Of a DNA stretch of 64,000 nt, positions 3,677 to 64,000 are shown piece by piece; positions within the stretch are counted from its first letter, which is position 1, and every line of letters starts with the position of its first letter. Below the pieces are notes generated by a model that saw nothing but the letters and a program-made list of their open reading frames with translations, searched no databases and had not been told where the DNA came from. This stretch comes from Candidatus Omnitrophota bacterium (GTDB lineage Bacteria; Omnitrophota; Gorgyraeia; Gygaellales; Profunditerraquicolaceae): positions 388,322 through 452,321 of the forward strand of contig JAQUQW010000001.1 in assembly GCA_028716245.1 (NCBI GenBank). Reading direction: 5' to 3'. The position numbers were made by a program, and so were the translations under genes.

Positions 3677-3685
3677 TATTAGGTT

Positions 3686-4129: not shown

Positions 4130-4132
4130 AAC

Positions 4133-5828: not shown

Positions 5829-5829
5829 T

Positions 5830-6915: not shown

Positions 6916-6930
6916 AACCTCACCTGTGGT

Positions 6931-8228: not shown

Positions 8229-8338
8229 TTTTCACCCGCCATTATTATAACACAGAATCAGGGAACGTTTCTATTTTTTTTCAAAAAAAATAGAAAAAAA
8301 ATAGAAACGTTCCTGGTTTCTCGTTTTTAAAATATTTA

Positions 8339-8374
8339 TTGACAAATTGACAGTATTATTATAAAATTTATAAT
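8339..8374 (+). promoter_or_regulatory. sigma-70 type promoter (tandem TTGACA; -10 TAAAAT/TATAAT) for the guaB-like/guaA/dnaE operon
   Basis: TTGACAAATTGACA then 16-17 nt spacer to TATAAT, about 85 nt upstream of ATG 8461 (RBS AAGGAGAA). Confidence 0.5.
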
Positions 8375-8460
8375 CCTTTCATTAGTTTTCCCAAAGCGGG
8401 CGAAATATTCATAACTTATTACAAAACAACGGGTTAATACTATAATAAGGAGAATTTAAG

Positions 8461-40693: not shown

Positions 40694-40990
40694 ATGAATA
40701 CCCAAATAGAATTAGAATATTTAAAACAACTAACTCAAAAATACGGTAGCCGCTATATAAAGAGTTATTTTGGTTTTACTATGAGAGATTTTGCAAGAAG
40801 AATGGGCATTGCAGATAATACTTTTAGCCAAATATTAAAAGGCGTACGTAAAATGCAGGAGAAATATGAACAAGCATTCTTACAGGCTTTTAAAGATTTG
40901 CAGGTAGAGGAAAAATCAAAGGGTTTCAAAGAAACCCCAAATCAGGTACAAATGAAACAGCTCTATCAAAAAAAGAACAGCTTATTCTGA
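40694..40990 (+). CDS. small HTH-containing hypothetical protein
   Basis: 98 aa; RBS AAGGAGG; HTH-like FTMRDFARRMGIADNTFSQILKG; AT-rich. Confidence 0.4.
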   Translation: MNTQIELEYLKQLTQKYGSRYIKSYFGFTMRDFARRMGIADNTFSQILKGVRKMQEKYEQAFLQAFKDLQVEEKSKGFKETPNQVQMKQLYQKKNSLF

Positions 40991-41666
40991 ATACAGGACA
41001 TCTTTGGGAACTGGATATAATATATCTTATGTTAACTTGTCTATCTTGGCTAAGTGTACTTAACCCTATATGAGACAATAAGTTATTAAGAGATGTTTTT
41101 AACCTGTGGAAAAGGTAATTCTTGTTTACTTAAACTTACCGCTTTATTTTATTCCTAACAATTCAGGCAAAATTTATGAATCATCTTCCCTGGATTTTTT
41201 GCTTTTAATTAAAGATTTTATTTATGAACCTGGCCGGGTTAAAACAGTAATTGCGGGATAAATTGACCTCTCTCCGAAGCGGTTATTAACGCGGTCTAGA
41301 GCCTAAATAAGGCCTTCCCTGCGGATTTCTTCCTAAGTAAACTATTAAGAGATGCCCATAGCAAGTGACCCCGATTGCCCGATTTCCGGGCCGTTTAGCC
41401 AAAGATACACCACATTGCGCTGACTAAATTTTGCTGCCTGAGCCTTGTAGCCACCATTTCAGACAACAGCCTGATCCAAGCTGGATAACCTGGGGGTTTA
41501 TTTGAGCTCTAGGTAAAGTATATGGATGGCTGATTGACTTGGGTTTTCACTGGACTTACCGGAACTTTCCTCAAACTTACCACAGTTACCATAACTCTCA
41601 TTAAAAAAATGCAGTAATGTTAAAGTTTGCACAGATTCTCTCGTGGAATTATCATCTGATCCATAT

Positions 41667-42270
41667 TTAATATTTCCTGATTACGGTGATGAGCTTGCCG
41701 ATTACCTCAAACTCTTCAAAGATTGGCGCGTAATTTGGATTAGCCGCTTCTAAATGAAACTTACCGGCTTTACTGCGCAGCCTTTTTAAAGTCACCTCAT
41801 TATTGTCTAAAAGTGCGGCAACTATATCATTATTGTCGGCATGGGGGCGTTTCTTGATAATGGCAATATCGCTATCTAGTATCCCGGCATCAATCATGCT
41901 GTCGCCTTTAACCTTTAAAGCGAAAACATCATCAAAACCCAGGCGGCCAAGAAATAAATCATCAGCATCAACATAACCCTGAATTTCTTCATAAGCTAAA
42001 TCCGGCTTACCGGCCATGATCGTACCGATTATGGGAATTTTAAAAGACGCGCGCTGCGTTAACCCGATTGCCCGTGATTTATTATTCATCCGCCTCACCA
42101 AACCTTTCTGTATTAGGGCCTTTAAATAGTCCCTGACTGTCCCGGTAGATTTAAACCCCAGCTCCTCTCCTATTTCTCTAATTGTAGGAGGGAGCCTCTC
42201 CCCTATCCGTTTGCGGATAAAATTAAGCACCTTTTCCTGCTTTGGCGTCAAATACGGCTTCTTTTCCATG
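41667..42270 (-). CDS. lexA: LexA repressor (SOS regulator, S24 peptidase)
   Basis: N-terminal wHTH (LTPKQEKVLNFI...GEELG), Ala-Gly cleavage site (IMAGKPD), Ser/Lys dyad (GDSM...KRL); start set to the internal Met MEKKPYLT rather than the track start 42290. Confidence 0.85.
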
Positions 42271-42282
42271 GCTATAGATATA

Positions 42283-42298
42283 CCACACATTTGTGTGG
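42283..42298. promoter_or_regulatory. candidate LexA operator: perfect palindrome CCACACA-TT-TGTGTGG
   Basis: Seen in sequence 13 nt upstream of the lexA start; autoregulated lexA genes typically carry their own operator here. Confidence 0.45.
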
Positions 42299-42333
42299 TT
42301 TGTCAAGAAAAATTAAAGGGGCGCCTCTAAAAT

Positions 42334-42381
42334 AAAGGGGACGGTTCTATTCCTTGGTTAAAAAATAGAACCGTCCCCTTT
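42334..42381 (-). terminator. REP-like hairpin copy C (AAAGGGGACGGTTCTAT-loop-ATAGAACCGTCCCCTTT)
   Basis: 17-bp stem with A/T-rich flanks, between the zinc-ribbon sORF and lexA on the minus strand. Confidence 0.55.
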
Positions 42382-42389
42382 ATTCTTAT

Positions 42390-42554
42390 TTAACGGCTTT
42401 GCCCCTTGCTCTTTTGATAACACTCTCTGCATAATATCGGTTTGCCGCCCTCTCTGGGTTTAAAAGGCACTTCGCATTCTTTTTTGCACTCTGCGCAAAT
42501 TGCCTTGTGCATTTCCCGGGGCCCGCCAAATCCACCACCTTGTTGATACGCCAT
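42390..42554 (-). CDS. 54-aa zinc-ribbon protein (CxxC-x17-CxxC)
   Basis: Below the 60-aa track threshold; translated by hand: MAYQQGGGFGGPREMHKAICAECKKECEVPFKPREGGKPILCRECYQKSKGQSR; perfect SD AAAGGAGGAAAC before the ATG; hairpin follows. Confidence 0.55.
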   Translation of the reverse strand: MAYQQGGGFGGPREMHKAICAECKKECEVPFKPREGGKPILCRECYQKSKGQSR

Positions 42555-42620
42555 GTTTCCTCCTTTTAGTTACTTAAATAATTATATAACTTTCTAAAAT
42601 AATCTCAAGTATTTTTAGTA

Positions 42621-42653
42621 AGGGGCTGGATAATCAAATCCAGCCCCTTTTTT
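42621..42653 (+). terminator. hairpin AGGGGCTGGAT-aatcaa-ATCCAGCCCCT plus TTTTT
   Basis: 11-bp stem with T-tract on the plus strand and A-tract on the minus; sits after the msrBA/sORF unit (minus) and could act in both directions. Confidence 0.5.
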
Positions 42654-42670
42654 AACCTATACAAATAAAC

Positions 42671-42727
42671 TTATTTCTTTTTCTTCTTTGCCTTTTTCTT
42701 CGGTTTCTTGCAGCTTCCGCAGCTCAT
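42671..42727 (-). CDS. 18-aa lysine-rich sORF (MSCGSCKKPKKKAKKKKK), possible micropeptide or leader
   Basis: Consensus SD AAAGGAGGTG 5 nt upstream, placed directly after the msrBA TGA stop; hand-translated. Confidence 0.25.
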   Translation of the reverse strand: MSCGSCKKPKKKAKKKKK

Positions 42728-43766: not shown

Positions 43767-44189
43767 TCATCTTTTGACTTTACGCGGCGCCACCATTTTT
43801 GCATCCTTTAAAACATCATACATAAAACTGATCATGGATATTTCCGTTTTGGGTATTTCTTCATTTATTTTATTTACGCCATAATCCAGAGCCCTGACAG
43901 TACGGAAACTATCGGTTACGGTTATAACCACCGCTTCGTTTCTTTCTAATTCCTTGATCCCTTCAAGAACAAACATAAGTTTCTGGTATTCGGTCAGCTG
44001 ATTCCAGTTTTTATTAGTAAGTTTATAGCCATCCCATTTTGCCTGGGCCTTAGGAAAAAAACAAATATGCGGGGTCTGGTTATACCGGTAAATATTGCCT
44101 GAATTTTTAATACCCGGACCGGATGTTGAAGCGCAGCCGTTTAACAGGAATACTGCGGTTAAAACAGAAATCACCGATCCTATTTTCAT
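43767..44189 (-). CDS. lipoprotein, hypothetical
   Basis: Lipobox LLNGCAS; 140 aa. Confidence 0.45.
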   Translation of the reverse strand: MKIGSVISVLTAVFLLNGCASTSGPGIKNSGNIYRYNQTPHICFFPKAQAKWDGYKLTNKNWNQLTEYQKLMFVLEGIKELERNEAVVITVTDSFRTVRALDYGVNKINEEIPKTEISMISFMYDVLKDAKMVAPRKVKR

Positions 44190-44818
44190 TTTTGATCTCC
44201 TTTCCAGGAATCGATAAATCTCTTAACCTCCCGGCCAATTGCGGAGAAATTTTTGGCGGCCAACCATTCTTTTCTAAAAACACTGGCGCCAAAAGAAACC
44301 GCACTAGCCCCACTGGCAAAGTAGTCCTTCAGGTCATCCGCAGTTACTCCGGAGCAGGCCAAAAGTTCTATTTGATTAAAAGGCCCTTTGATCTCCCGAA
44401 AATACTCCGGCCCAAAAAATTTTGCCGGAAACACTTTGACCATCGTTGCCCCTGCCTCCCAGGCATAATAGATCTCCTGAGGGCTAAGGGCTCCGGGAAA
44501 TACCGGAATTTTATTTTTCACGCAATATTTCACAACATCATTGACTAAAACCGGCATCACGATAAAAGTCGCTCCACTCTTGAGAGCAATTTTTAAATCT
44601 TGCAAAGTAAGCACTGTGCCTGCGCCTAAAATCAAACGGCCTCGAGATACTTGCTTTGCCTTTTTAATTAAATCCGAAACTCCAGAAGTATTCATGGTAA
44701 TTTCTAAAGTTTCAAGCCCAGCCTCAATTACCGTTTCAACTAAAGGCTCAATCTGACTTACTTCGACACCCCGAAGAATCCCAAGAATAGGTTTTTCCTT
44801 AAATTTTATTATATCCAT
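44186..44818 (-). CDS. eda: KDPG / 4-hydroxy-2-oxoglutarate aldolase
   Basis: Eda family TIM barrel (GILRGV...LEITMNT...GAGTVLT, Schiff-base Lys region KVFPA); 210 aa. Confidence 0.75.
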   Translation of the reverse strand: MDIIKFKEKPILGILRGVEVSQIEPLVETVIEAGLETLEITMNTSGVSDLIKKAKQVSRGRLILGAGTVLTLQDLKIALKSGATFIVMPVLVNDVVKYCVKNKIPVFPGALSPQEIYYAWEAGATMVKVFPAKFFGPEYFREIKGPFNQIELLACSGVTADDLKDYFASGASAVSFGASVFRKEWLAAKNFSAIGREVKRFIDSWKGDQK

Positions 44819-44864
44819 ATAGAAACTTATTTAAGGGTGTCCCCTTTCAGGACGTCCCCCTTAT

Positions 44865-45815
44865 TTATTCTTCAACCTCCCCGACTAAATTCTCGTAAAA
44901 CTCACGGTAATTTTCTTTTTTATCGCTCCCCCGCAGGGCAATTGCCGTGCGCGGATGCTCATTAAGGATCCCGGTAATCGCGTAAGGGATAAAGTATCCC
45001 CATTCTATCTTTTTCTGCAAAGGGATAAACTCCTTGGAAATCACATCCAGGATCGGCCGGATATCATATTTAGGGTTCTTCAGAAATCCCAGGATCAACT
45101 CAGTGGGACAATTGCCCGCTGCCCTGCCTAAACCAAAGATGCTCGTATCCACGTAATTGGCCTCATGAATAATAGCCTCGATGGTATTGGCAAAGGCAAG
45201 CTGCTGATTATTATGCGCGTGCATCCCGACTTCCTTGCTTTTCAAAATACCTTTTGCTTTCTTGATCAGAAATTCCGTGGTTTCCTGATACAATGAGCCG
45301 AAGCTGTCCACGATATTGATTATCTTGGCCTTACATTCTTTTTCAAGCTGCTGCAGGCATTCGGTAAGTTCATTATCCAGCGCCCGGGATATGGCCATAA
45401 TATTTACCGCGGTTTCATAACCTTTATCCGCAAAGTGATTTGCCAGAAGGATCGCCTTATCCACATCCTTGACATAAGTAGCCACCCTGACCATATCAAC
45501 CGGGCTGTCTTGCTTAGGTAAAATATCGTCGATATCCACCCTGTCCACATCCACCATCACCGAGATCTTGGTCCGGGAAGCAATCCCCTCAACTACTTTC
45601 TTGATATCCTGATCCTCGCAAAATTTCCATTTACCAAACTCTTTGGGATTAAAAATCCGTTTGGAATTCTTATAGCCAATCTCCATATAATCTATACCCG
45701 CCTCAGAGAGCGCCTTATAAACTTCGCGCACAAAACGCAGGTCAAAATCATGATTATTCATTAATCCGCCGTCCCTGATCGTGCAGTCCAAAACCTTAAT
45801 CTTTTCCCTAAACAT
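44865..45815 (-). CDS. HMGL-like (DRE-TIM metallolyase) aldolase/synthase family protein
   Basis: N-terminal IKVLDCTIRDGG and downstream HxH (GMHAHNN) metal site; 316 aa. Confidence 0.6.
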   Translation of the reverse strand: MFREKIKVLDCTIRDGGLMNNHDFDLRFVREVYKALSEAGIDYMEIGYKNSKRIFNPKEFGKWKFCEDQDIKKVVEGIASRTKISVMVDVDRVDIDDILPKQDSPVDMVRVATYVKDVDKAILLANHFADKGYETAVNIMAISRALDNELTECLQQLEKECKAKIINIVDSFGSLYQETTEFLIKKAKGILKSKEVGMHAHNNQQLAFANTIEAIIHEANYVDTSIFGLGRAAGNCPTELILGFLKNPKYDIRPILDVISKEFIPLQKKIEWGYFIPYAITGILNEHPRTAIALRGSDKKENYREFYENLVGEVEE

Positions 45816-45826
45816 CAGCTCCTCCT

Positions 45827-46870
45827 TTAATCCCTGTTAATAACACCAACCATCTGGCAAAGCCGGCCGTAATCGCGCAGATTAAAGTTCATGATCAGCC
45901 GGGGCAACTGCGGATACTCCCCCTTTTGGATCTCCTCTTCGGTGGGAGGAGAAAAACAAATTTCGCCGCTTGCCAGAATATCTTTAAATTCCCGGTTGAT
46001 CAGATCCAAAGTTTTATCGGAAATTTTTTTATTCAGCCGCATTACCGTCAAACCGGCAACATACCTGATCGAGTGGTAGATCCGATAAAAATCTTCGATA
46101 TATTTGATTGCTTCATCGATGCTTTTAGCCATGTAAAAAAGGTTAAAATCCTCTTTTTTCACAAAGTCATTTTTAAACAGCTGGTTATTTATGAAACGCT
46201 TCCAATCAACCCAATAGGTAGAGCCTTTAGGTTCCATTAAAACTATCGGCCGGGGCTTGGATTTTCCGGTTTGAATGAGCGTAAGCATTTCAAAGCCTTC
46301 GTCATTTGTGCCAAACCCGCCCGGAAATAAAGCGGTGGCGTCGGTTTCTTTGACAAAAACCAGCTTTCTGGTAAAAAAATATTTAAAATTAATCAACCTC
46401 TCTTTTTCATCGATATAAGGATTGGGCTTTTGCTCAAAAGGCAGGCGGATGTTTAAGGCGAAATCTTTTCCAGCCAATGCCCCCTTATTGCCGGCCTCCA
46501 TAATCCCGGGGCCGCCTCCGGTTACCACCATATAGCCTTTTTCAGTTAGCTTCCTTGAAAATTCTTCAGCCATCTTATATTCAGCTGATGCTTTTTTAGA
46601 TCTAGCTGAACCAAAGATAATTACTTTTTTAATATTTCTATAGGGAGAAAACACCCTAAAGGAATAGCGTAATTCTTTAAGCACGTTATTTACAAGCTTA
46701 AGGTCACCCTTATCATCAGACTCCCTGCCTAATTTAACCGCGGTGGTGATTATTTCCCTTAACAAATGCGCGCTTTCCGCAGAGCTGATTTTTTTAACCA
46801 GCTCATCGATTAAATTATCTATGGCTTTGTCGCCAATTTCATAATCTTTTGCTATCCTGGCCATAACCAA
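45827..46870 (-). CDS. LOG-family (TIGR00730) nucleotide 5'-monophosphate nucleosidase with N-terminal extension
   Basis: IIFGSARS...VVTGGGPGIMEA and PGGFGT..E LOG motifs. Confidence 0.7.
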   Translation of the reverse strand: MVMARIAKDYEIGDKAIDNLIDELVKKISSAESAHLLREIITTAVKLGRESDDKGDLKLVNNVLKELRYSFRVFSPYRNIKKVIIFGSARSKKASAEYKMAEEFSRKLTEKGYMVVTGGGPGIMEAGNKGALAGKDFALNIRLPFEQKPNPYIDEKERLINFKYFFTRKLVFVKETDATALFPGGFGTNDEGFEMLTLIQTGKSKPRPIVLMEPKGSTYWVDWKRFINNQLFKNDFVKKEDFNLFYMAKSIDEAIKYIEDFYRIYHSIRYVAGLTVMRLNKKISDKTLDLINREFKDILASGEICFSPPTEEEIQKGEYPQLPRLIMNFNLRDYGRLCQMVGVINRD

Positions 46871-46888
46871 CCCTTCTTTACCCGATAC

Positions 46889-47284
46889 TTATTTTTTATC
46901 CTTCTGGACAAAATCCCTTATCGCGGCTTTATCTTCCTCTGAAATTTTATCAAAACGAATCCCGATCCTATGGCTTTCATCAGGCATAACCGAATTCGAC
47001 ATGACCTGCGCGATAACCTCAATACGCCTCAAACGCTTTTCGCCAACCAAACGCAAATTCATGAGATTAAATTTTACCCGAAGAAGCGTTCCTAACGGTA
47101 TGTCGTACTTAGTAATAATCGCCGCGCCCAGATCGCTTAAGTCCCGCATTAAAGCGCCGGTTTCATCGGGTAACCCCAAAGTAATGCGTAATTCAAACGG
47201 CTTCTCTATGCTATAGCTAAGCGTAAAAGCAGCCTCAGTACGAGCGGACTTGCGGTGATTTTGGCCATTCTTGCCATTTTCCAT
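46889..47284 (-). CDS. PilZ-domain protein (c-di-GMP receptor)
   Basis: RKSAR (RxxxR) and DLSDLGA (DxSxxG) motifs. Confidence 0.6.
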   Translation of the reverse strand: MENGKNGQNHRKSARTEAAFTLSYSIEKPFELRITLGLPDETGALMRDLSDLGAAIITKYDIPLGTLLRVKFNLMNLRLVGEKRLRRIEVIAQVMSNSVMPDESHRIGIRFDKISEEDKAAIRDFVQKDKK

Positions 47285-47298
47285 ACCCGCCCCCCCCT

Positions 47299-48366
47299 CT
47301 ACAATTCGATTAACTCATAATCAAGGCTGCCCAGCCCTATTTCCTGGGCGTATTTAAGCTGCTTCATCCCGTCTTGCTCAGGATGCGTTGCTTTAAAGAT
47401 ATCCGTGCCGCTTGCTTTATTCACCAAATCAAAACTTGCTTTGTCGATACTTACCGGGTCAAGCGATGCCAATATCCCGACATCAGGGGCAATCCGCGGA
47501 TTTTCCATTCCCCAGTAATCACATTCCTTATTAATTTTTACGGCAAAATTTATGAAACCGGATTTATTTTCTTTTCCTTTGAGCACTGCCAGGATATATT
47601 CTGCCATCTTCTCCTGCACCTTATCCCCCGCCTTAAAATCGATGAACATCGCCATAGTCGGACATACCGCCAGGCAGCTGGCGCAGCCAATGCACTTTGA
47701 ACTATCTACCACGGATTTTTTATTCTCAAGGTGAATCGCCTTTACCGGACAAACTATTTGGCACTCACCGCAGCCGATACATCTTTCTGTATGGACAACC
47801 GGCGCCACATCGCAATGCTGGGCAAGTTTCCCCTGCCTGGAAGCGCACCCCATACCGATATTTTTTAGCGCTCCGCCAAAACCGGTTAGAATATGCCCCT
47901 TGAAATGGCTGACCGCGACAATTGCCTCCGCATCGATAAAAATGCGCATTAGGCTGGCGCTTTTGATAAATTTTTGATTAATCGGTATGGCAACCACATT
48001 TTCTTTTTTTGTATCATCCGGTATGATCACATCCGCGCCGGTGACCACCTTGGTAAATCCGTGCTCATAAGCTAACTTCAGATGATCGCTGGAATTCAGG
48101 CGTTTTCCCCGATACAGAGTGTTGGCATCCGCTAAGAAAGTGTTTGCCCCGCATCTTATAATTGCATCGCAGACCGGACGTAAATGCTCTGGCCTCACAA
48201 AACCCGTATTTCCTTCTTCCCCGAAATGAAGCTTGACTGCAACTTGATCATTTTTATGGATAAAATCTAAAACCTTGCTCTCTTCAATCAATCTTTTGAG
48301 CTTTTGGTTAACCGACTGAAGATCATTAGAGTCATTTACCGGGATAAAATATACCTTGCTTTTCAT
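47299..48366 (-). CDS. DUF362-domain protein with two 4Fe-4S ferredoxin clusters
   Basis: CIGCGECQIVCP and CIGCASCLAVCP motifs inside a DUF362-like body; 355 aa. Confidence 0.65.
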   Translation of the reverse strand: MKSKVYFIPVNDSNDLQSVNQKLKRLIEESKVLDFIHKNDQVAVKLHFGEEGNTGFVRPEHLRPVCDAIIRCGANTFLADANTLYRGKRLNSSDHLKLAYEHGFTKVVTGADVIIPDDTKKENVVAIPINQKFIKSASLMRIFIDAEAIVAVSHFKGHILTGFGGALKNIGMGCASRQGKLAQHCDVAPVVHTERCIGCGECQIVCPVKAIHLENKKSVVDSSKCIGCASCLAVCPTMAMFIDFKAGDKVQEKMAEYILAVLKGKENKSGFINFAVKINKECDYWGMENPRIAPDVGILASLDPVSIDKASFDLVNKASGTDIFKATHPEQDGMKQLKYAQEIGLGSLDYELIEL

Positions 48367-48367
48367 T

Positions 48368-48943
48368 TTATGCGCAAACCTTCTGCATAAGCCAAGCCAT
48401 GTTCTTGCCCAATATGCTCATCGTATTCAAACCTTCTTCGTCTTTTTCTACTTCTCCGATTTGGCGGCCAATCCCGATATTCCAATATAATGAACCCACA
48501 ATGATCATCTCCCCTATTGTAAAAAAATGATTGATCGTATCAAAAACATGGATTGCCCCGCCGCGCCTTACCGCAACAACTGCGGCGCCGATCTTACGCA
48601 TGAACATATTATCATTGGCTCTGGCTACCATACCCGCGCGTTCAATTAAGGCTTTGGCATTGGCCGTGCAATCGGCAAAATAAGTCGGTGAGCCAATAAT
48701 GATCCCGTCTGCCGCAATCATCTTGGCGATATACGCATTAACCGGATCATTATTCACGGCGCACTTTTTATTTTTTTTCGTAAAACACACCCCGCAACCG
48801 GCGCACCCCTGAATTTTCTCACCGGCCAACTGGATGAGCTCAGTTTCAATTCCTTTATTTTCCAATTCCTTAAAAACTTTCTTGATAAGAATCGCAGTAT
48901 TGCCGTCTTTGCGGGCGCTGGTGTTAAAAGCAACCACTTTCAT
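48368..48943 (-). CDS. iron-sulfur flavoprotein / NADPH-dependent FMN reductase family
   Basis: Flavodoxin-like fold (MKVVAFNTSARKDGNT), compact Cys cluster CAGCGVC...C, GSPTYF motif. Confidence 0.65.
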   Translation of the reverse strand: MKVVAFNTSARKDGNTAILIKKVFKELENKGIETELIQLAGEKIQGCAGCGVCFTKKNKKCAVNNDPVNAYIAKMIAADGIIIGSPTYFADCTANAKALIERAGMVARANDNMFMRKIGAAVVAVRRGGAIHVFDTINHFFTIGEMIIVGSLYWNIGIGRQIGEVEKDEEGLNTMSILGKNMAWLMQKVCA

Positions 48944-53221: not shown

Positions 53222-53263
53222 AATAATAATGCCGGTATCTAAAAAAGATGCCGGCATTATTAT
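53222..53263. terminator. bidirectional terminator (18-bp stem AATAATAATGCCGGTATC / GATGCCGGCATTATTATT)
   Basis: Between convergent genes ending at 53199 and 53273; A/T tracts on both sides. Confidence 0.7.
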
Positions 53264-53272
53264 TTTAATAAA

Positions 53273-53821
53273 TTACGCGGATTTTTCTAAGTCAATCGTG
53301 CGGGTATCGCCGTGGATTGCCATTGATTCAACCTTGCTTAGCTTCGACATCCTCTCCATAACGTCGCGGATTTTTTGAAAATTATTATGCATAGTCTCAA
53401 TCCTATTGCGGGTCTTTTCGTTTAGTTCAATATGTTTAAGTTCGAGTTCAAGCAACTCAAGGTTTCCGCTAATAGCCAAAAGCGGATTATTCACCTGGTC
53501 CCCTAAAGCAAGCGCGGTTTCGGTAATTGCCGCCAGGCGGCTCTTTTCAATCAATTCCTGCTGCATAAGCAGGATCTTACGGTTATCGTCGATTAATTTA
53601 AAAATTACCGACATCAGCATCCTTCTGCCGACGACAATCCCCATAATAAAAACGCCGATGGTCGCCAACACAATATAGCCGGCCTCTGCGGCTAAAAGAT
53701 TAAAATTAGCAAACTTATCCACGATCAAATAGATAAATACCAAGAGAGGAATAATACCGACAAGGCTTAATGCGCGGTTAAAATCTTTTTTGATATTATA
53801 GGTGAATTGTCTTACTTCCAT
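53273..53821 (-). CDS. 2-TM protein with a degenerate HisKA-like dimerisation domain (no phosphoacceptor His, no ATPase domain)
   Basis: Two N-terminal TMs, then a coiled coil and H-box-like LALGDQVNNPLLAISGNLELLE with D/Q where His is expected. Confidence 0.4.
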   Translation of the reverse strand: MEVRQFTYNIKKDFNRALSLVGIIPLLVFIYLIVDKFANFNLLAAEAGYIVLATIGVFIMGIVVGRRMLMSVIFKLIDDNRKILLMQQELIEKSRLAAITETALALGDQVNNPLLAISGNLELLELELKHIELNEKTRNRIETMHNNFQKIRDVMERMSKLSKVESMAIHGDTRTIDLEKSA

Positions 53822-54278
53822 ATAAATTCCTCCTGATTATTAAGAGGGTTATTAGGTAACAAAGCGCCCCTAAAACTAAACCGATAACCAGATAGCCGGT
53901 GATAACCGGCAGAAGCACCTCAAAAAATGAAAGTTTAAAAAATTTAAACCAGGTAAAATCCTGCACCAGGCCTTGCGCTTTCTGCTGCACCTGCCGCCAA
54001 TCCATTTTAAGTATAACAGAACCGGCTTTTATTGCCAAGATAAAAGTTACCAGGCTTAACCAGGTATTGGTAAGTAAACTGCCGAATAATGCCGCGGCGC
54101 GGTTGGCCCGAAAAATAAAAGCCAAAAATACCGCGGCAACCGGACCGGTTCCGGGCATCAGGCCGCTAAATACGCCAAGGCCGGCGCCCAAAGCAATTTT
54201 TTGCGCGGAATCATTGATCTTAAAAAGCCTGGAAAAAATAAAATTGATGATTTTCTTAAATCCGGATTCTTCGGCCAT
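53796..54278 (-). CDS. small polytopic membrane protein, hypothetical
   Basis: 160 aa with 4 predicted TM helices. Confidence 0.4.
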   Translation of the reverse strand: MAEESGFKKIINFIFSRLFKINDSAQKIALGAGLGVFSGLMPGTGPVAAVFLAFIFRANRAAALFGSLLTNTWLSLVTFILAIKAGSVILKMDWRQVQQKAQGLVQDFTWFKFFKLSFFEVLLPVITGYLVIGLVLGALCYLITLLIIRRNLYGSKTIHL

Positions 54279-54280
54279 AT

Positions 54281-55240
54281 TTAAATAGGTTTAATATTTA
54301 CTCCGGCAAATCTCTCCTGGCCGTAGGACTCCTGGATCCAACCGTTAAGCAAATGGTATTTTTCCAATATCCGCCTGGCTTCTGCATACTCCCCAGCTTT
54401 GAGGCGACGATTGACTTTAGGATTGCCGGATGCTTTATGATAAGGCAAATACTGGCTCATTAAGCTTATATAAACGTTTTCGGATAATTCTTCGGCGATA
54501 AATTCCATTACCTTCTCGGTTGCGCAAATCCGGTTGGGCAATACCAAGTGCCGGATAATTAAGCCCTTCCTGATTAGTCCGTCTTCGCTAAACCCAGCCG
54601 GCTCCACCTGCCTGTACATTTCCTTAAGCGCTGCCTGATTAAATTCCACGTAATCGTCAGCTTGTGATAATTCCTTGGCAATCAGGTTATCCCCATAGCG
54701 GCTATCGGCAAGATAAATATCAACGATGCCCTCGAGTAATTTAATAATTTCGGCTAATTCATAACCACTGGTGTTGTAAACCAGCGGAATCTTTAATCCT
54801 TGGGGGATAGCTAATTCTAAACTTTTAAGTATCTGCGGTAAAACATGGGTTGGGGTAACCAGATTAATATTATGGCAGCCTAAACCCTGTAACTCCAGCA
54901 TAATTTGCGCCAATTGCTCAAAAGTATATTCTTTACCGGCCCCCAGCTGGCTAAACTCATAATTCTGACAATACAGGCAGGCCAGATTACAATGACTAAA
55001 AAATATCGTCCCGCTTCCTTTTGTGCCGGAAACCGGCGGCTCTTCGCCATAATGGGGCATAAAACTGTAAATCTTAGGAAGTTGAGCGGTTTTACAAAAA
55101 CCGATTTTATTCTCTAACCGGTTGACCTTACAACGGCGCGGGCAAATCTGGCAGGATTTAAGAGAAGTAAACAACTGTTGAGATATCTTCTTTAATCTGC
55201 CGCTTTTATAAGCGCTAAGATATGCTGGATACTCTGGCAA
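54281..55240 (-). CDS. radical SAM protein (PFL-activating-enzyme-like)
   Basis: CNLACLYCQN CxxxCxxC cluster motif; 319 aa. Confidence 0.75.
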   Translation of the reverse strand: MPEYPAYLSAYKSGRLKKISQQLFTSLKSCQICPRRCKVNRLENKIGFCKTAQLPKIYSFMPHYGEEPPVSGTKGSGTIFFSHCNLACLYCQNYEFSQLGAGKEYTFEQLAQIMLELQGLGCHNINLVTPTHVLPQILKSLELAIPQGLKIPLVYNTSGYELAEIIKLLEGIVDIYLADSRYGDNLIAKELSQADDYVEFNQAALKEMYRQVEPAGFSEDGLIRKGLIIRHLVLPNRICATEKVMEFIAEELSENVYISLMSQYLPYHKASGNPKVNRRLKAGEYAEARRILEKYHLLNGWIQESYGQERFAGVNIKPI

Positions 55241-55246
55241 TTTATT

Positions 55247-55759
55247 TTACGGTGTATAGAGTTTCCTGATCTGGTTGAAAATATCGATATACTCTTTACT
55301 GCGGTAATCCGGATAAGTCCAGTCATTGCCGGAAAATGAATTGTCCCTGAAAGAAAGGGTCACCTCGGCAAAAATACCTTTACGTAAGAATATCCTGTGG
55401 GCGTAATCCTTGGTGGAAGCAAGTACCAGCTTAGCCGAATCTAGATATCCCGGATCAAGATTTAGCTGCCGCGATTTGGAAATGGATAATTTTCCCTCAA
55501 GCCTGTTGGTATAAAGTTTGATGCGGTATAAATCCTGCATCGGGATCAGCTTATGAAAGCTGATGAACCTCCTTTTTAACCCTGCGCCCATCTCTGCTTC
55601 ATAATAATCGGTGTAGTTAAAATCAATCTGTCCTGATTCAAAATCGATTTTCCCGAATTTTCTTGCTAATTTATTCCTAGCTTTGATAAAAACAGCTTCA
55701 TCTTTGTAGATGAAGCCGATAATTAACTTAACCGGATTATATTTTCTGATTTTTCCCAA
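55247..55759 (-). CDS. DUF4416-like protein (tentative)
   Basis: 170 aa; N-terminal PVKLIIGFIY pattern recalled from DUF4416; family assignment not verifiable here. Confidence 0.4.
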   Translation of the reverse strand: MGKIRKYNPVKLIIGFIYKDEAVFIKARNKLARKFGKIDFESGQIDFNYTDYYEAEMGAGLKRRFISFHKLIPMQDLYRIKLYTNRLEGKLSISKSRQLNLDPGYLDSAKLVLASTKDYAHRIFLRKGIFAEVTLSFRDNSFSGNDWTYPDYRSKEYIDIFNQIRKLYTP

Positions 55760-55766
55760 TGATTTT

Positions 55767-56114
55767 TTAAGGCAAGAGCTTGCTTATATAGCGGGCGATC
55801 TTTTTACGCTGTTCATCGCGCATTTCGTTAAAAAATATGGCCAGGTTAAATCCGCCGTTGGCTTCATCCTCAGTCCTTACCACCACCCCCCGGCATTCAA
55901 CAATCGTGCCTTTACCGGGCTGGTCCTTATCAGGCAGGCTCAACTTTACGGAAATCTTGGTAAACGGCGGCATATATTTATCCAAGTGGCAATAAGCGCC
56001 CACGCAGCTGATATTACGCGTTGAGGTGGAAAAATGATAACCGTCTACCGCCAGATTAAGCGGTAACTTCTGGTCTAATCGCGGATGTAACCTGCGTTCC
56101 TTGATACTTTTCAT
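55767..56114 (-). CDS. PilZ-domain protein
   Basis: RRLHPR (RxxxR) and NISCVGA (DxSxxG-like) motifs. Confidence 0.6.
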   Translation of the reverse strand: MKSIKERRLHPRLDQKLPLNLAVDGYHFSTSTRNISCVGAYCHLDKYMPPFTKISVKLSLPDKDQPGKGTIVECRGVVVRTEDEANGGFNLAIFFNEMRDEQRKKIARYISKLLP

Positions 56115-56302
56115 TATTTTTTCTCTTCTGCCTTTGATTTTTTAATAAATTCCCGCCAGCATTTCTTGCTGCAGTAGTATTTACCGTTTCGGTAATACCT
56201 TTTCAGCTTCTTAACCACTTTATTACAAGCCAGGCAATTAACGCGTTTATCCGCCTTGGGCTTTGCTTCTGCTTCTTTTACTTTGGGTGCTTCCGGTGCC
56301 AT
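56114..56302 (-). CDS. small zinc-ribbon protein (CxxC...CxxC), lysine-rich
   Basis: 62 aa; NCLACNK ... YCSKKCW; overlaps the PilZ start by 1 nt. Confidence 0.5.
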   Translation of the reverse strand: MAPEAPKVKEAEAKPKADKRVNCLACNKVVKKLKRYYRNGKYYCSKKCWREFIKKSKAEEKK

Positions 56303-56324
56303 GACTTATCTTCCTTTCATTTAG

Positions 56325-56690
56325 TTAAATTTGCCCAAGTTGCATATTGATAAAATCTTTAAGGTATATTTGTTCGTGCAGATTAAACTCGACAAACTCT
56401 ATACCCATTTGATTGCGATTAGAATGCGACAGGGGCGTTGACCAGGCTATTTTACCAACAGGCCTGAGTACGCGGTTTAAAACATTAATTTCAAGCATTA
56501 CCGCGGTAGAAGTGGGAACAAACCTGTCGTTAGTAAACCTTAAACCGCCGCAGCTTATGTCATTAGTGAGAGCGCTATTAAAATCCGGCTTGCCTCTGAT
56601 CTGATACTGTATCTTTGAATGAAAATCTATCCGGGGAAAACAACGATTTTCTTTCTGTCTTGCCAAAAACACCATAAAAAAATATAACAC
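56325..56690 (-). CDS. PilZ-domain protein
   Basis: RCFPR and DISCGG motifs; the true start may be Met6 (56675), which coincides with the predicted TSS. Confidence 0.6.
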   Translation of the reverse strand: MLYFFMVFLARQKENRCFPRIDFHSKIQYQIRGKPDFNSALTNDISCGGLRFTNDRFVPTSTAVMLEINVLNRVLRPVGKIAWSTPLSHSNRNQMGIEFVEFNLHEQIYLKDFINMQLGQI

Positions 56691-56709
56691 ATATTCGTAA
56701 ATATGTCAA
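56681..56709 (-). promoter_or_regulatory. sigma-70 promoter (TTGACA-17-TATATT) for the PilZ/zinc-ribbon/DUF4416/radical-SAM operon
   Basis: Read on the minus strand: TTGACATATTTACGAATATGTGTTATATT. Confidence 0.45.
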
Positions 56710-56730
56710 TACTTTACAAAAGGTGCAATA

Positions 56731-56770
56731 AAAAGGCCTCCTTTTAAATCTCAAAAAGAGGCCTTTTATT
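56731..56770 (-). terminator. rho-independent terminator (AAAGGCCTC...GAGGCCTTT plus TTTTATT)
   Basis: Follows the stop of the minus-strand gene at 56789. Confidence 0.7.
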
Positions 56771-56788
56771 AATATCTAAAAAAATAAA

Positions 56789-57235
56789 TTAGTTCTGGTT
56801 TTCGATTGAGACTAGGCTCAGCTCATCCCCAACCTGCTTGGCAGTAACGGTTACCTGTAACTTGCTGTCAGCTACTTTAAGAAACTCTGCAACTTTGGCG
56901 TTGGAATTTTTATCGAATTTGTAAAGCTTGCCGTCTGCAAAAATAGAATAACCACTCTCAATGCATCCGGGTTTTAAAGCACACTCCTTGGTATGTGTCT
57001 TGACAAATTCAGCCAGAGTGTCTTTATTAGCGCCTGCGCACATATTGTCGATAACATCGCCCTTTAACGTCAAAACTTCAGGAGTAACGGCAACTGTAGT
57101 CGCAGTAGCGGTTGTCGCAGCTGTAGCCTCAGTAGCAGTTGTAGCAGCAGGCACAGCGGTATCCTCAGCAAAAGCTAAAGAGCTTACAAAACAAAAAGCA
57201 ATAAGCACAAAAAATATCTTTTTCATTTTATTCAC
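56789..57235 (-). CDS. secreted Thr/Ala-rich protein with a Cys-containing C-terminal domain, hypothetical
   Basis: Signal peptide; low-complexity ATTATEATAATTATATT linker; 148 aa. Confidence 0.45.
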   Translation of the reverse strand: MNKMKKIFFVLIAFCFVSSLAFAEDTAVPAATTATEATAATTATATTVAVTPEVLTLKGDVIDNMCAGANKDTLAEFVKTHTKECALKPGCIESGYSIFADGKLYKFDKNSNAKVAEFLKVADSKLQVTVTAKQVGDELSLVSIENQN

Positions 57236-61980: not shown

Positions 61981-62344
61981 ATGCGCTTCTTGATAGCCCC
62001 GCTTTTCTTTGGCCTTGTTGCCAATAAAGATCCAGGTCGATTTTGTATAAACCACCATCGATCAAGCTGTAATTTAGGCCCCAGCTAAAAGTCTTACCCG
62101 ACTTTTGAAATTCACCTGTTGTTTGCAGCTGGGCCAAAGCGCCAAACTTATTCAAACCATCCTGCGCCTGCCAAAGCTGTTCATCCATCCACGGAATAAG
62201 GTTGAGATAATTGGTGTAACGGTTAAAGGCATCTAAGGAAGTAAAAAATGCCCCATATATCAGAACAGTCCCCAGAGACAAAACCACTGTGGTAACCATT
62301 ACCTCTATAAGGGTAAACCCTTTATTCCCAATTTTTAACGTCAT
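61955..62344 (-). CDS. gspI: GspI-like minor pseudopilin
   Basis: KG-FTLIEVMVTTVVLSLG prepilin signal; start ambiguous (62344, 62365 or 62389). Confidence 0.55.
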   Translation of the reverse strand: MTLKIGNKGFTLIEVMVTTVVLSLGTVLIYGAFFTSLDAFNRYTNYLNLIPWMDEQLWQAQDGLNKFGALAQLQTTGEFQKSGKTFSWGLNYSLIDGGLYKIDLDLYWQQGQRKAGLSRSAYAEYKKKE

Positions 62345-63083
62345 CCTCGGTTCCTTCTTGGCCATCCCTTCCCAATGAATACAGATCATAATCGGCCCGA
62401 TGGTTACCCGGTGATTTATATTTATACTCTCTTCCCCAGGGGTCCAGGGGCTGCTTCTCTAAATAAGGGCCGTTCCATTTTCGGCTGGAAGCCGGCTTAT
62501 TCAACAAAGCATTTAAACCTTCTTCGGTGGTAGGAAAAATACCATTATCTAACTCGTAAAGTTTTAAAGCAGTGGCAATATTGGCGCGGATATCGGCTTC
62601 GGCGGTAGCCACGCGTGCCTGCTCGGTCCTTCCGGTAAGCCGAGGCATTACCATTGCGACCAAGGCTCCAATGATTATAACCACCAGCATCAGTTCAATC
62701 AGAGTAAAACCCTTAGGCGCCGTTACTTTTTCAATAGCCGATATGACCGTATCTATTTCTACCGGTTTAGTGATATAATCCAGTACCCCTAACTCATAAG
62801 CCTTAAGCTTATCTGCGTCCTTACTCAAAGCAGAAAGAATTATTATGGGGGTTTTACTGCCCACAGGATCACTGTTGAGCAGCTGGCAGGCATCCATACC
62901 TCCTATATCCGGCATAAGCAAATCAAGCAATAAACAATCGGGCTTATATTTATCTACTTGCGCGACAATATCTTTAGCGTTGGATAAAGCAATCACTTCA
63001 TAACCTTTACCTTCCAGGTTCAGTTGCAATATTCTCAAGAAATCTACCTCATCGTCAACCAGCATTATCTTCTTTTTCTTCAT
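62322..63083 (-). CDS. gspG: response-regulator receiver (REC) domain fused in frame to the major pseudopilin GspG
   Basis: Residues 1-120 are a complete REC (DD at 11-12, phospho-Asp in LLLDLLMPD, ILSALS, ITKP Lys), followed directly by TAPKG-FTLIELMLVVIIIGALVA (prepilin cleavage/methylation signal) and a GspG body with C-terminal Ca-binding loop DYDLYSLGRDGQEGTEDDV; no internal start or SD before the pilin part. Confidence 0.8.
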   Translation of the reverse strand: MKKKKIMLVDDEVDFLRILQLNLEGKGYEVIALSNAKDIVAQVDKYKPDCLLLDLLMPDIGGMDACQLLNSDPVGSKTPIIILSALSKDADKLKAYELGVLDYITKPVEIDTVISAIEKVTAPKGFTLIELMLVVIIIGALVAMVMPRLTGRTEQARVATAEADIRANIATALKLYELDNGIFPTTEEGLNALLNKPASSRKWNGPYLEKQPLDPWGREYKYKSPGNHRADYDLYSLGRDGQEGTEDDVKNWE

Positions 63084-64000
63084 GTTGTCCTTTCCTCCCC
63101 TATCTTAAAACTAAGAACCGCCTTAGTAAACTTGCCTTCCTGGCTAACTATATCAATGACCCCTCTATGCATCAGCATAATATTACGCGTAACTGACAGG
63201 CCTAAACCCAGTCCTTTATTGGGGCCTTTGGTGGTAAAAAAGGGCAGAAAAAGCTTATCCGTATTCTCTTTAGAAATACCTGTCCCTGTATCTTCTATTT
63301 CTACAATCAGGGCCTCTTCCCCTAAGGCAAACATATCGCTTTTTCTCTTGCCCACTCCATTTTTTATTTCATCGAGTTTTTTTGAATAAACGCGGATAAA
63401 GATCTTGCCGCCACCCGGCATTGCTTCAATGGCATTTAATAAGATATTCACCAGCGCCTGTTCAATTTTTTGCCGGTCAACAAAGATTTTAGGTAAATCT
63501 GCCTGGAATTGCCTGCTGATTTCAATATTACCCAGCTTAATTTTATGCTCAACCAGGACCAAAGAACTTTCTAATATAGATTCTATACTCTCATTTTGCT
63601 TGGATAACTCTGTTTTTCGGGAAAAACTAAATATTCCATCAATAATATTGTCGCTTCTTTTGACATTATCCTTAATCATATTCAAGGTATCAGAAATATT
63701 CCGAGGGCAAGGCTTAAGCTTGCCTTCTAAAAAATTCACCCCCTGCAAAATTACAGCTAAAGGATTCCTTATTTCATGGGCCACACCGCTGGCCAAAACA
63801 CCTACCGCGGCTAATTTTTCCGAATCCATCAACTCTGTCTGGACCTTATGTAATTCTACATAGGCCCTCTTTAGCTCCTCCGCCTTTTGCTGGCGTTCGG
63901 TAACATCCCGGCTAATGTGGACAAATTCATTAATCTGGTTTTTTTCATCCACAAGAGGATAAACGCTTACTTCAAAAAATCTTGGGTGGTTATTATTATC
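63080..64000 (-). CDS. PAS-domain sensor histidine kinase (HisKA + HATPase_c), 5'-partial
   Basis: H-box HEIRNPL, N/G1/F/G2 boxes (LLNAIEAM, EDTGTGI, GLGLGLS); the frame stays open beyond position 64000 with PAS-like sequence; its TGA overlaps the ATG of the REC-GspG gene (ATGA). Confidence 0.8.
   Translation of the reverse strand, partial: DNNNHPRFFEVSVYPLVDEKNQINEFVHISRDVTERQQKAEELKRAYVELHKVQTELMDSEKLAAVGVLASGVAHEIRNPLAVILQGVNFLEGKLKPCPRNISDTLNMIKDNVKRSDNIIDGIFSFSRKTELSKQNESIESILESSLVLVEHKIKLGNIEISRQFQADLPKIFVDRQKIEQALVNILLNAIEAMPGGGKIFIRVYSKKLDEIKNGVGKRKSDMFALGEEALIVEIEDTGTGISKENTDKLFLPFFTTKGPNKGLGLGLSVTRNIMLMHRGVIDIVSQEGKFTKAVLSFKIGEERTT

Follow-up and report, generated by a model that had tools for sequence, protein, structure and literature searches.

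A conserved Omnitrophota operon encoding stand-alone PilZ proteins, a zinc ribbon, DUF4416 and a radical-SAM enzyme

Here we describe a previously undescribed operon of Candidatus Omnitrophota, encoding PilZ, zinc-ribbon (ZnR), DUF4416, radical-SAM and DUF2062 proteins, that lies within a 64,000-nucleotide stretch of DNA (the window, to which all coordinates refer). Seven tightly packed genes form a single minus-strand transcription unit with one promoter and a strong terminator hairpin at each edge, in the order PilZ-A, ZnR, PilZ-B, DUF4416, radical-SAM enzyme, DUF2062 and a membrane protein with a degenerate HisKA domain, with neighbouring genes either overlapping or separated by at most 22 nt. 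The upstream edge is marked by the terminator hairpin (56726..56771, minus strand) of the preceding gene (56789-57235), where the minus-strand fold of 56722-56785 reaches -21.8 kcal/mol (z -4.9) and is followed by a U run; the operon itself ends in a hairpin with a 14-bp stem (53222..53264, minus strand), for which the minus-strand fold of 53222-53275 reaches -22.5 kcal/mol (z -7.7). The genes named in the original prediction, which was made from the sequence alone, are all found where it had placed them, every Pfam call among them exceeds its gathering score, and the two membrane-protein genes that it had noted after the radical-SAM gene encode the DUF2062 and HisKA-domain proteins. Its range of 54281-56690 does fall within an operon, but the transcription unit extends further, to about 53222. 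A reading of the operon as a defence system was dropped because PADLOC was negative, the one match of the operon proteins to its defence models being a weak hit to pVip over the radical-SAM motif (E 0.0033, 15 bits).

The predicted TTGACA-17-TATATT promoter is present at 56681..56709 on the minus strand as a sigma-70-type sequence with a TG-extended -10 box, agreeing with the consensus at 11 of 12 positions in our scan. An identical TTGACA-17-TATATT stands upstream of PilZ-A in 58 of 62 related loci, and we saw no conserved promoter inside the operon. The GTG at 56690 from which the open reading frame listing (56325-56690) begins PilZ-A falls within this promoter, and the likelier start is the ATG at 56675. 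As 5 nt separate the end of the -10 box from this ATG, the operon mRNA is probably leaderless. A leader is absent from the window and from about half of the relatives, whereas many relatives share a conserved 5′ leader hairpin whose AGCCACGG loop is invariant; this leader can pair in two alternative ways around the ribosome-binding site. The leader of the relatives has no matching Rfam family, and the long leader of one of them (L010) returned nothing below E 0.39 from Rfam. The best match at that E-value was an unrelated snoRNA model. A preQ1-I riboswitch, which the long leader resembles by eye in its hairpin and A-rich tail, was considered and dropped, there being no Rfam match. We likewise set aside AGCCACGG as a general regulatory motif, since it occurs once in the window, at chance level.

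PilZ-A (56325..56675, minus strand; 116 aa from the ATG) is a stand-alone PilZ protein scoring 32.6 bits against a cut-off of 22.5 for Pfam PilZ (PF07238), with the motifs R11xxxR15 and D39xS41xxG44 conserved across 63 orthologues, and it was found in 55 of 70 evaluable related loci. PilZ-B (55767..56114, minus strand; 115 aa), also stand-alone, scores 48.0 bits against the same 22.5; its motifs, R7R8xxxR12 and N34xS36xxG39, are at least 90% conserved in 78 orthologues, and the gene is present in 66 of 70 related loci. Outside the operon, a third PilZ gene (46889-47284; 37.7 bits versus 22.5) carries R11xxxR15 and D48xS50xxG53. All three PilZ calls, therefore, lie above the profile threshold, and the predicted RxxxR and D/NxSxxG motifs occur in each and are conserved in orthologues. 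The window had been said to hold four PilZ genes; three are detectable, and neither a Pfam census of 71 open reading frames nor our own HMMs built from PilZ orthologues, run on window reading frames of at least 50 aa, produced a fourth. Stand-alone PilZ proteins such as MapZ/PA4608, FlgZ, DgrA and PlzA are known c-di-GMP adaptors, often acting on targets encoded elsewhere than next door. The two operon proteins are like these adaptors in consisting of a single PilZ domain of ~115 aa with RxxxR and D/NxSxxG intact, and by analogy would be expected to make protein-protein contacts after binding c-di-GMP. They are unlike them in flanking, as a pair of paralogues, a translationally coupled Cys4 zinc ribbon and in sharing a transcript with the genes for DUF4416, a radical-SAM enzyme and DUF2062. 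Judged by title and abstract, none of the papers listed for PilZ and radical SAM together describes such a system, and we found none linking the two.

The ZnR gene (56114..56302, minus strand) encodes a lysine-rich Cys4 zinc ribbon and, as predicted, a 62-aa product bracketed by two PilZ genes, but the proposed CxxC...CxxC motif is in fact C23xxC26-x17-C44xxxC48. Its stop codon shares bases with the start codon of PilZ-B (TAATG), an overlap seen in 68 of 74 loci. The gene was found in 66 of 70 related loci, with all four cysteines at least 90% conserved in 76 orthologues, and the protein is conserved over its entire length, unlike a RiPP precursor. Searches of Pfam and NCBIfam gave only weak matches below cut-off (Metallothio_Pro, LIM and PP0621_fam), that to the PP0621 family (NF041023) having E 1.6e-4 and 21.8 bits against a cut-off of 45, and no profile detected a DNA- or RNA-binding domain. 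ZnR resembles the Cys4 ribbons of the TRASH/FCS type in its C-x2-C ... C-x3-C arrangement, its (F/Y)-C-S-K-x-C sequence and its existence as a small stand-alone protein; it differs from TRASH, where the spacer is 19-22 residues, in having a spacer of 17.

The gene that follows PilZ-B (55247..55759, minus strand; 170 aa, cytoplasmic) had been called DUF4416-like and proves to be a full member of DUF4416 (Pfam PF14385), scoring 206.5 bits against a cut-off of 27 over profile positions 2-162 of 162. The protein has a ferredoxin-like alpha/beta fold for which HPPK is the nearest solved structure, although the Foldseek E-values are not significant (nothing below E 0.01) and ferredoxin-like folds of the ACT, PII and S6/S10 types score almost as high. 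We rejected true homology to HPPK and retain it as a fold-level lead only, given that hhalign against E. coli FolK returned a probability of 0.1%, that Pfam found no HPPK match and the PDB no sequence match, and that Foldseek was also against it. Where HPPK has D-x-D, DUF4416 has N100-x-D102, so that one of the two Mg-binding aspartates of HPPK is an asparagine. A role as a glycyl-radical protein was also rejected, except as part of an improbable alternative discussed below: the glycyl-radical motif is R-V-x-G-Y, and the corresponding stretch of DUF4416 is L-R-K-G-I-F, with G128 80-95% conserved family-wide rather than invariant. The family is widespread (2247 clusters at 50% identity), and in eight sampled contexts outside the clade (~38-51% identical) it had no PilZ or radical-SAM neighbour, which indicates that DUF4416 does not generally need these partners. 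Elsewhere, it is fused to M48 and AnmK or adjoins GpsA or a PfkB kinase. No mention of DUF4416 or COG1313 was found in the literature.

The radical-SAM enzyme (54281..55240, minus strand; 319 aa) scores 38.3 bits against 29.5 for Pfam Radical_SAM (PF04055) and has the CX3CX2C cluster motif as C84x3C88x2C91, together with an additional invariant N-terminal Cys4 motif (C30, C33, C37 and C49). The JGI annotation of its orthologues is “putative pyruvate formate lyase activating enzyme”, and its fold is closest to PFL-AE. Nevertheless, its scores lie far below the family cut-offs for TIGR02493 PFLA (19.5 versus 231.75) and TIGR02495 NrdG2 (27.1 versus 131.15), both matches spanning residues 76-118 only, and it differs from PFL-AE and other glycyl-radical activases in having ~75 extra N-terminal residues with the invariant Cys4 as well as a C-terminal extension. 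No cognate glycyl-radical enzyme was found in the operon or the window: the window reading frames of at least 700 aa are a 1150-aa frame (11186-14638), a P-type ATPase and a 910-aa frame (28495-31227), the first and last of which were assigned by size to the DNA pol III alpha and PEP-utiliser/PPDK domains present in the Pfam census, and none of the 25 families listed, of 154 in that census, is a glycyl-radical family. The operon also bears some likeness to AmmeMemoRadiSam, in which a radical-SAM enzyme of unassigned substrate is likewise co-encoded with small uncharacterised partners. The corresponding profile (TIGR04337) matches weakly over the N-terminal Cys-rich region and cluster motif (residues 29-98, E 0.0034), but at 16.3 bits against a cut-off of 220, and neither AMMECR1 nor Memo was among the Pfam domains of the operon. 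The literature matches listed for “PflX” were unrelated.

Two membrane proteins complete the unit. The DUF2062 gene (53796..54278, minus strand; 160 aa, Pfam PF09835, 82.1 bits versus 27.4) starts 2 nt past the radical-SAM stop, encodes an integral membrane protein and was found in 49 of 56 related loci. The DUF2062 literature is mostly concerned with the Brucella effector BspA or with taxonomy. Overlapping it by 26 nt is the gene for an accessory membrane protein (53273..53821, minus strand; 182 aa) with a HisKA (DHp) domain (29.4 bits versus 26.9), present in only 16 of 56 related loci. This protein has no HATPase_c match in Pfam and does not qualify as a sensor histidine kinase; its H-box reads by eye as G-D-Q-V-N-N-P-L, and the phospho-acceptor histidine appears to be replaced by aspartate.

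Comparisons against the best 80 of 346 genome matches, all of them Omnitrophota species genomes (two loci, L051 and L083, share one MAG), revealed that the genes are syntenic in most; a lack of synteny in every relative would have told against the original prediction. Since roughly 90% of these 80 genomes carry the block, and one conserved near-consensus promoter serves it, the operon is likely core to Omnitrophota physiology. In the distant half of the set, where DUF4416 is 55-63% identical, ZnR and PilZ-B are each retained in 29 of 33 loci, the radical-SAM enzyme in 30 of 34, DUF2062 in 22 of 28 and PilZ-A in 20 of 33, PilZ-A thus being absent from about a third. About 88% of these distant loci keep the block with its PilZ/ZnR and DUF4416/radical-SAM halves adjacent, as against just 0-1 of 19-25 for the ten genes that flank it in the window, and the block has therefore been retained more than chance would allow. 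In three relatives (L001-L003) it adjoins genes (2603-8228) from which ~48 kb separate it in the window, which indicates that in the window's arrangement the block was parted from them intact. On this evidence, the block is very probably a real, selectively conserved operon. The two halves are split by inserted genes in L052 (a nitroreductase), L064 (4 kb), L065 and L081, and in L066, L070 and L076 DUF4416 is found with neither PilZ nor radical SAM. In 21 loci the block also encloses a gene for an M48 lipoprotein protease, and in 12 one for an acyl-CoA synthetase; the window has neither.

The description of the window as dense in c-di-GMP functions was overstated. It does contain the three PilZ genes and one HD-GYP gene (2603-3676), a predicted c-di-GMP phosphodiesterase with an HD_5 match (E 2e-44) and both the LLHDAG and HHEKYNGTGYP motifs, but no cyclase (no GGDEF or EAL motif in reading frames of at least 150 aa) and no c-di-GMP riboswitch, the sole gathering-score match of Rfam to the window being one tRNA. 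The 7TM-HD protein that had been counted alongside them is indeed present (19366-20676), but its domains (7TM-7TMR_HD and HD) make it PgpH-type, a family that hydrolyses c-di-AMP rather than c-di-GMP. One GGDEF gene occurs in the relative L065, and this and the HD-GYP gene of the window suggest that c-di-GMP turnover occurs in the clade.

Our preferred interpretation is of a clade-specific operon in which two modules are held together by selection. Module 1 (PilZ-A, ZnR and PilZ-B) would supply two single-domain c-di-GMP receptors whose binding motifs are intact, with the small basic ZnR, to which PilZ-B is translationally coupled, probably in complex with it. Module 2 would comprise DUF4416, whose conserved Arg, Lys, Asp and Asn side chains might together accommodate a phosphorylated ligand, as well as the radical-SAM enzyme and DUF2062 as an inner-membrane protein; the M48 lipoprotein protease and/or acyl-CoA synthetase within this module in many relatives point to a cell-envelope process involving lipids or lipoproteins, at which the M48 and AnmK fusions of DUF4416 elsewhere and its GpsA or PfkB neighbours also hint. 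The PilZ proteins presumably bind c-di-GMP as other stand-alone adaptors do, and in that state may contact the co-encoded enzyme or membrane module, turning a radical-SAM-dependent envelope modification on or off. We put the probability of this whole mechanism at roughly 35%. Its link between the PilZ proteins and the enzymes is drawn from gene order. Against the mechanism stand the loss of PilZ-A from about a third of the distant loci, an HPPK likeness of DUF4416 confined to the fold, and the absence of both the M48 protease and the acyl-CoA synthetase from the window. Synteny by itself makes c-di-GMP control of the operon enzymes plausible, and the control of a modification reaction put forward in the original prediction is partly supported, but the module splits and the eight DUF4416 contexts outside the clade count against it.

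These same observations suit a reading that we regard as somewhat unlikely, in which the modules are independent and share only a promoter, the PilZ/ZnR unit acting on targets elsewhere (for example, type IV pilus/T2SS-like machinery or other enzymes) and module 2 performing a housekeeping reaction outside c-di-GMP control. Inserts do separate the halves in four loci, DUF4416 is widespread and has unrelated neighbours in the eight outside contexts, and published stand-alone PilZ proteins often have their targets encoded elsewhere; however, independence is hard to square with halves that stay adjacent in about 88% of distant loci despite fully reshuffled flanks, and with a single conserved promoter for both and no conserved internal one. 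That gene order merely reflects inherited history within one phylum and is functionally meaningless seems very improbable. All of the compared loci are Omnitrophota, so that shared descent and not selection may account for part of the synteny, and the closer half often conserves the downstream flank (GpmA, PEBP, GIY-YIG and ABC-F) as well, yet the block persists in the distant half where the flanks are lost, a control that already disfavours this explanation, and both the gene overlaps and the promoter are conserved, while the separation from neighbours of the L001-L003 type left the block intact.

The chemistry could also be that of a PFL-type activase acting on an operon-encoded protein (DUF4416, ZnR or PilZ), generating a protein radical or another radical-mediated modification. 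We consider this distinctly unlikely, as DUF4416 lacks the glycyl-radical signature and has no adjacent radical-SAM gene in the eight outside contexts, the enzyme falls below the activase cut-offs and ZnR is not conserved in the manner of a RiPP precursor. The more specific version in which radical-SAM modification of the co-encoded DUF4416 or ZnR is gated by c-di-GMP, with the two PilZ receptors licensing it, strikes us as quite improbable. Alternatively, PilZ and the basic ZnR might form a c-di-GMP-responsive nucleic-acid-binding regulator that autoregulates the operon, for example through the leader hairpin of the relatives. The lysine-rich ZnR with its TRASH/FCS-like Cys4 spacing, a AGCCACGG loop that could be a protein-binding site, and the published PilZ-containing nucleic-acid binders MrkH and PlzA all lend it some appeal, but the same three genes occur in the window and in about half of the relatives where the leader is missing, and the profile searches detected no nucleic-acid-binding domain; this too we rate as having little chance.

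Little is known of signalling in Omnitrophota, an uncultured group of bacteria that are often ultra-small and may be predators or depend on a host. The operon ties predicted c-di-GMP receptors to three families that lack an assigned function, namely DUF4416, the radical-SAM subfamily annotated as a putative PFL activase, and DUF2062, and provides a testable starting point for each of them. Should the PilZ proteins control the enzyme module, the processes governed by c-di-GMP would extend to radical-SAM chemistry; if the c-di-GMP-gated modification of DUF4416 or ZnR is true, it would be the first case of second-messenger control of a radical-SAM enzyme via PilZ adaptors and would give a first function to DUF4416 and to this radical-SAM subfamily. 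Quite apart from this, the leader hairpin of the relatives is itself a candidate new cis-regulatory RNA, with AGCCACGG enriched in the related loci only at the PilZ-A leader, where 22 of its 39 occurrences lie.

Seven minus-strand genes, overlapping or at most 22 nt apart, form a single transcription unit that runs from 56709 to about 53222. They encode PilZ-A (56325-56675/56690; Pfam PilZ score 32.6 vs a gathering score of 22.5), the 62-aa Cys4 zinc-ribbon protein ZnR (56114-56302; profile matches all sub-threshold), PilZ-B (55767-56114; 48.0 vs 22.5), a DUF4416 protein (55247-55759; 206.5 vs 27), a radical-SAM enzyme (54281-55240; Radical_SAM 38.3 vs 29.5), a DUF2062 protein (53796-54278; 82.1 vs 27.4) and a 182-aa HisKA-domain membrane protein (53273-53821; 29.4 vs 26.9). 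All Pfam calls within the operon (PilZ, DUF4416, Radical_SAM, DUF2062 and HisKA) therefore lie above their gathering scores. The original prediction had placed an operon at 54281-56690; this range does belong to one transcription unit, but the actual unit is somewhat larger, extending to about 53222. The TTGACA-17-TATATT promoter it named is present on the minus strand at 56709-56681, where it is near-consensus and carries an extended -10 box. A strong hairpin followed by a U run lies on either side of the operon: the upstream one, in 56722-56785, folds at -21.8 kcal/mol (z -4.9) and the downstream one, in 53222-53275, at -22.5 kcal/mol (z -7.7). The annotated GTG start of PilZ-A (56690) falls within the promoter, and an in-frame ATG (56675) lies only 5 nt past the -10 box, so that the operon transcript is probably leaderless.

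To assess conservation, we took the 80 best DUF4416 loci from 346 matches in a collection in which each species is represented by a single genome and scanned them with the window proteins, restricting counts to loci with sufficient flanking DNA. All 80 loci belong to Omnitrophota, with DUF4416 identities to the window copy of 55-91%. The window itself is from a Candidatus Omnitrophota genome, and its close homologues, wherever an organism is named, are all labelled Omnitrophota or Omnitrophica. ZnR and PilZ-B each occupy the expected position in 66/70 loci, PilZ-A in 55/70, the radical-SAM gene in 63/67, DUF2062 in 49/56 and the HisKA gene in 16/56, and the promoter precedes PilZ-A in 58 of 62 loci. 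The key control compared loci at different divergence: among the more distant half (55-63% DUF4416 identity) the block is still retained (ZnR and PilZ-B in 29/33 each, radical SAM in 30/34, DUF2062 in 22/28, PilZ-A in 20/33), whereas the ten window genes flanking the operon were found in just 0-1 of 19-25 loci. The predicted association extends to most of the 80 loci. In three relatives (L001-L003) the block adjoins AAA_22, DHQ-synthase, M50, SH3, SPOR and HD-GYP genes, which in the window lie at 2603-8228, ~48 kb away and on the other strand; the window arrangement therefore differs by a rearrangement in which the block parted intact from these neighbours. One metagenome-assembled genome (JBDRLN01) carries a copy of the PilZ/DUF4416 block on each of two contigs (L051 and L083), which could be strain heterogeneity, contamination or true duplication.

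The c-di-GMP-binding motifs of both operon PilZ proteins are intact, namely R11xxxR15 and D39xS41xxG44 in PilZ-A, kept across 63 orthologues, and R8xxxR12 and N34xS36xxG39 in PilZ-B, kept across 78; both simply add to a known family. ZnR is lysine-rich, with the cysteine pattern C23xxC26-x17-C44xxxC48 and a conserved core, KPKxEKQTNCxxCNKxIKKLKRYYRxGKFYCSKKCW. Its profile searches gave no match above cut-off, with the Metallothio_Pro, LIM and PP0621 families sub-threshold, and its cysteine spacing resembles that of TRASH/FCS zinc ribbons. The ZnR stop overlaps the PilZ-B start (TAATG), as in 68/74 related loci, which suggests that the two genes are translationally coupled and that their proteins probably form a complex. 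No ATPase domain was found by Pfam search in the HisKA protein, whose H-box, read by eye as G-D-Q-V-N-N-P-L, apparently has Asp in place of the phospho-acceptor His, making a functional kinase unlikely.

Inserts and absences among relatives make the block look like two modules, PilZ-A/ZnR/PilZ-B and DUF4416/(M48)/radical SAM/(acyl-CoA synthetase)/DUF2062, which are usually, not always, joined. In 21 loci DUF4416 and the radical-SAM gene have a lipoprotein M48 metalloprotease between them, and in 12 an acyl-CoA synthetase lies between the radical-SAM gene and DUF2062; neither insert is present in the window. In L064 a 4-kb insert separates PilZ-B from DUF4416, which forms one continuous ORF with M48 (6995-8392), and L052 holds a nitroreductase within the block. 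PilZ-A is genuinely missing, rather than overlooked, in about eleven loci, and in L066, L070 and L076 neither PilZ nor radical SAM accompanies DUF4416. With 2247 clusters at 50% identity, the DUF4416 family is large, and none of eight contexts sampled outside the clade (~38-51% identical) has a PilZ or radical-SAM gene beside it, so the association is observed only inside this Omnitrophota clade. Neighbours in those contexts include GpsA (twice), a PfkB kinase, an AIRS-family protein and YicC, while fusion proteins (P0148, P0193, P0172 and P0246) join DUF4416 to AnmK, Ste24-type M48 protease, cytidylyltransferase-like and ThiS-like domains. Several Omnitrophota have DUF4416 beside or continuous with M48 even without PilZ and radical SAM, with M48 peptidases near DUF4416 in L066 (6992-11543) and L070; this recurring link may be the older association. 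The recurrent M48, AnmK and GpsA links hint at a role in cell-envelope metabolism.

The reading we favour, at a probability of roughly 35% for the mechanism as a whole, including ligand binding, complexes and target process, is that the PilZ receptors switch a co-encoded envelope modification module. The PilZ proteins would act as c-di-GMP receptors, PilZ-B probably pairing with the zinc ribbon, and, if they behave as other stand-alone PilZ adaptors do, would switch the co-encoded enzyme/membrane module by contacting it; the process switched would be an envelope-related, radical-SAM-dependent modification, as the accessory genes suggest. The operon is conserved and its PilZ motifs are intact. 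The main rival, under which two modules that are not always joined merely share a promoter, is only slightly less probable. The fold of the radical-SAM enzyme resembles that of PFL-AE, and it might modify a co-encoded protein in the same fashion, but it falls outside the glycyl-radical activases in their membership tests, no cognate glycyl-radical substrate enzyme is encoded nearby, and DUF4416 lacks a glycyl-radical motif and its G128 is not invariant, leaving this unlikely. We also regard as doubtful an account in which the PilZ/zinc-ribbon unit, with its lysine-rich ZnR, is a nucleic-acid-binding autoregulator. That the gene order is purely inherited synteny is least probable, being disfavoured by the flank control.

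Three of the operon proteins (DUF4416, DUF2062 and the zinc ribbon) are uncharacterised; literature searches yielded no paper on DUF4416 or COG1313 and none connecting PilZ with radical-SAM enzymes. What is new here is the conserved and so far undescribed set of partners of a PilZ receptor module; the operon that encodes them is real, occurs widely in a phylum that is poorly understood, and can be tested directly. A comparison with known defence systems gave no match for any operon protein.

Like the window, which lacks the structured leader, roughly half of the related loci are leaderless; the remainder have a 41-57-nt leader upstream of PilZ-A (for example L010 about 6021-6080, L014, L017-L020, L023-L027, L029, L046, L051, L053, L056, L059, L062, L068, L077 and L083). 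In most leaders a loop bearing an almost invariant AGCCACGG is closed by pairing between an SD-like purine arm and a pyrimidine arm that resembles an anti-SD, and the arms vary by clade with pairing kept (GAGGUA/UGCCUC, GAUGGA/UUCAUC, GGAAG/CUUCC, GGGAAA/UUUCCU). Folding without constraint yields two other pairings: the pyrimidine arm with the true ribosome-binding site, and the loop GCCA with the AUGGC start. Shuffled controls fold less stably than the hairpin (mean z -2.2, twelve representative leaders), the octamer is position-specific (22 of its 39 occurrences in 887 kb of related loci are PilZ-A leaders), and no Rfam family matches. From its sequence the leader looks like a candidate new translational switch, which would respond to a ligand or factor. 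Thirteen of the 16 loci with the HisKA gene have the leaderless promoter type, not the structured leader.

The window had also been described as dense in c-di-GMP genes, with four PilZ genes; a Pfam census and orthologue HMMs found three. The claimed HD-GYP gene is present, as the only one in the window, with both HD and GYP motifs intact, but the 7TM-HD protein at 19366-20676 (+), comprising 7TM-7TMR_HD and HD domains, is PgpH-like by its domains. The PgpH type hydrolyses c-di-AMP, and so this protein should not be counted as c-di-GMP machinery. GGDEF and EAL motifs are absent from all window ORFs of 150 aa or more, and an Rfam search found no riboswitch in the window. One clear GGDEF protein in the flank of a relative (L065) indicates that cyclases occur in the clade. 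The third PilZ gene (46889-47284, minus strand) lies between DUF362/4Fe-4S (47299-48366) and LOG-family Lysine_decarbox/SLOG (45827-46870) genes, in a neighbourhood (43767-48943) with HMGL-like and KDPG-aldolase genes downstream and an FMN reductase upstream.

Gene orientation is plus over 1-40.7 kb and minus over 41.7-64 kb, and about 40700-42700 the GC skew changes sign, cumulative skew peaks and GC content falls to 0.36, so that this looks like a replication-terminus region. At 62322-63083 (-), a 253-aa ORF fuses a response-regulator receiver domain (residues 6-117) to a GspG-type major pseudopilin in a single reading frame; the receiver domain occupies the usual place of the short prepilin leader, and the prepilin site G|FTLIELM lies at about residue 124. 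An overlapping HisKA+HATPase kinase gene (63080-63952, minus strand) lies upstream, and GspJ-like, GspK-like and PilM-PilN genes lie downstream.
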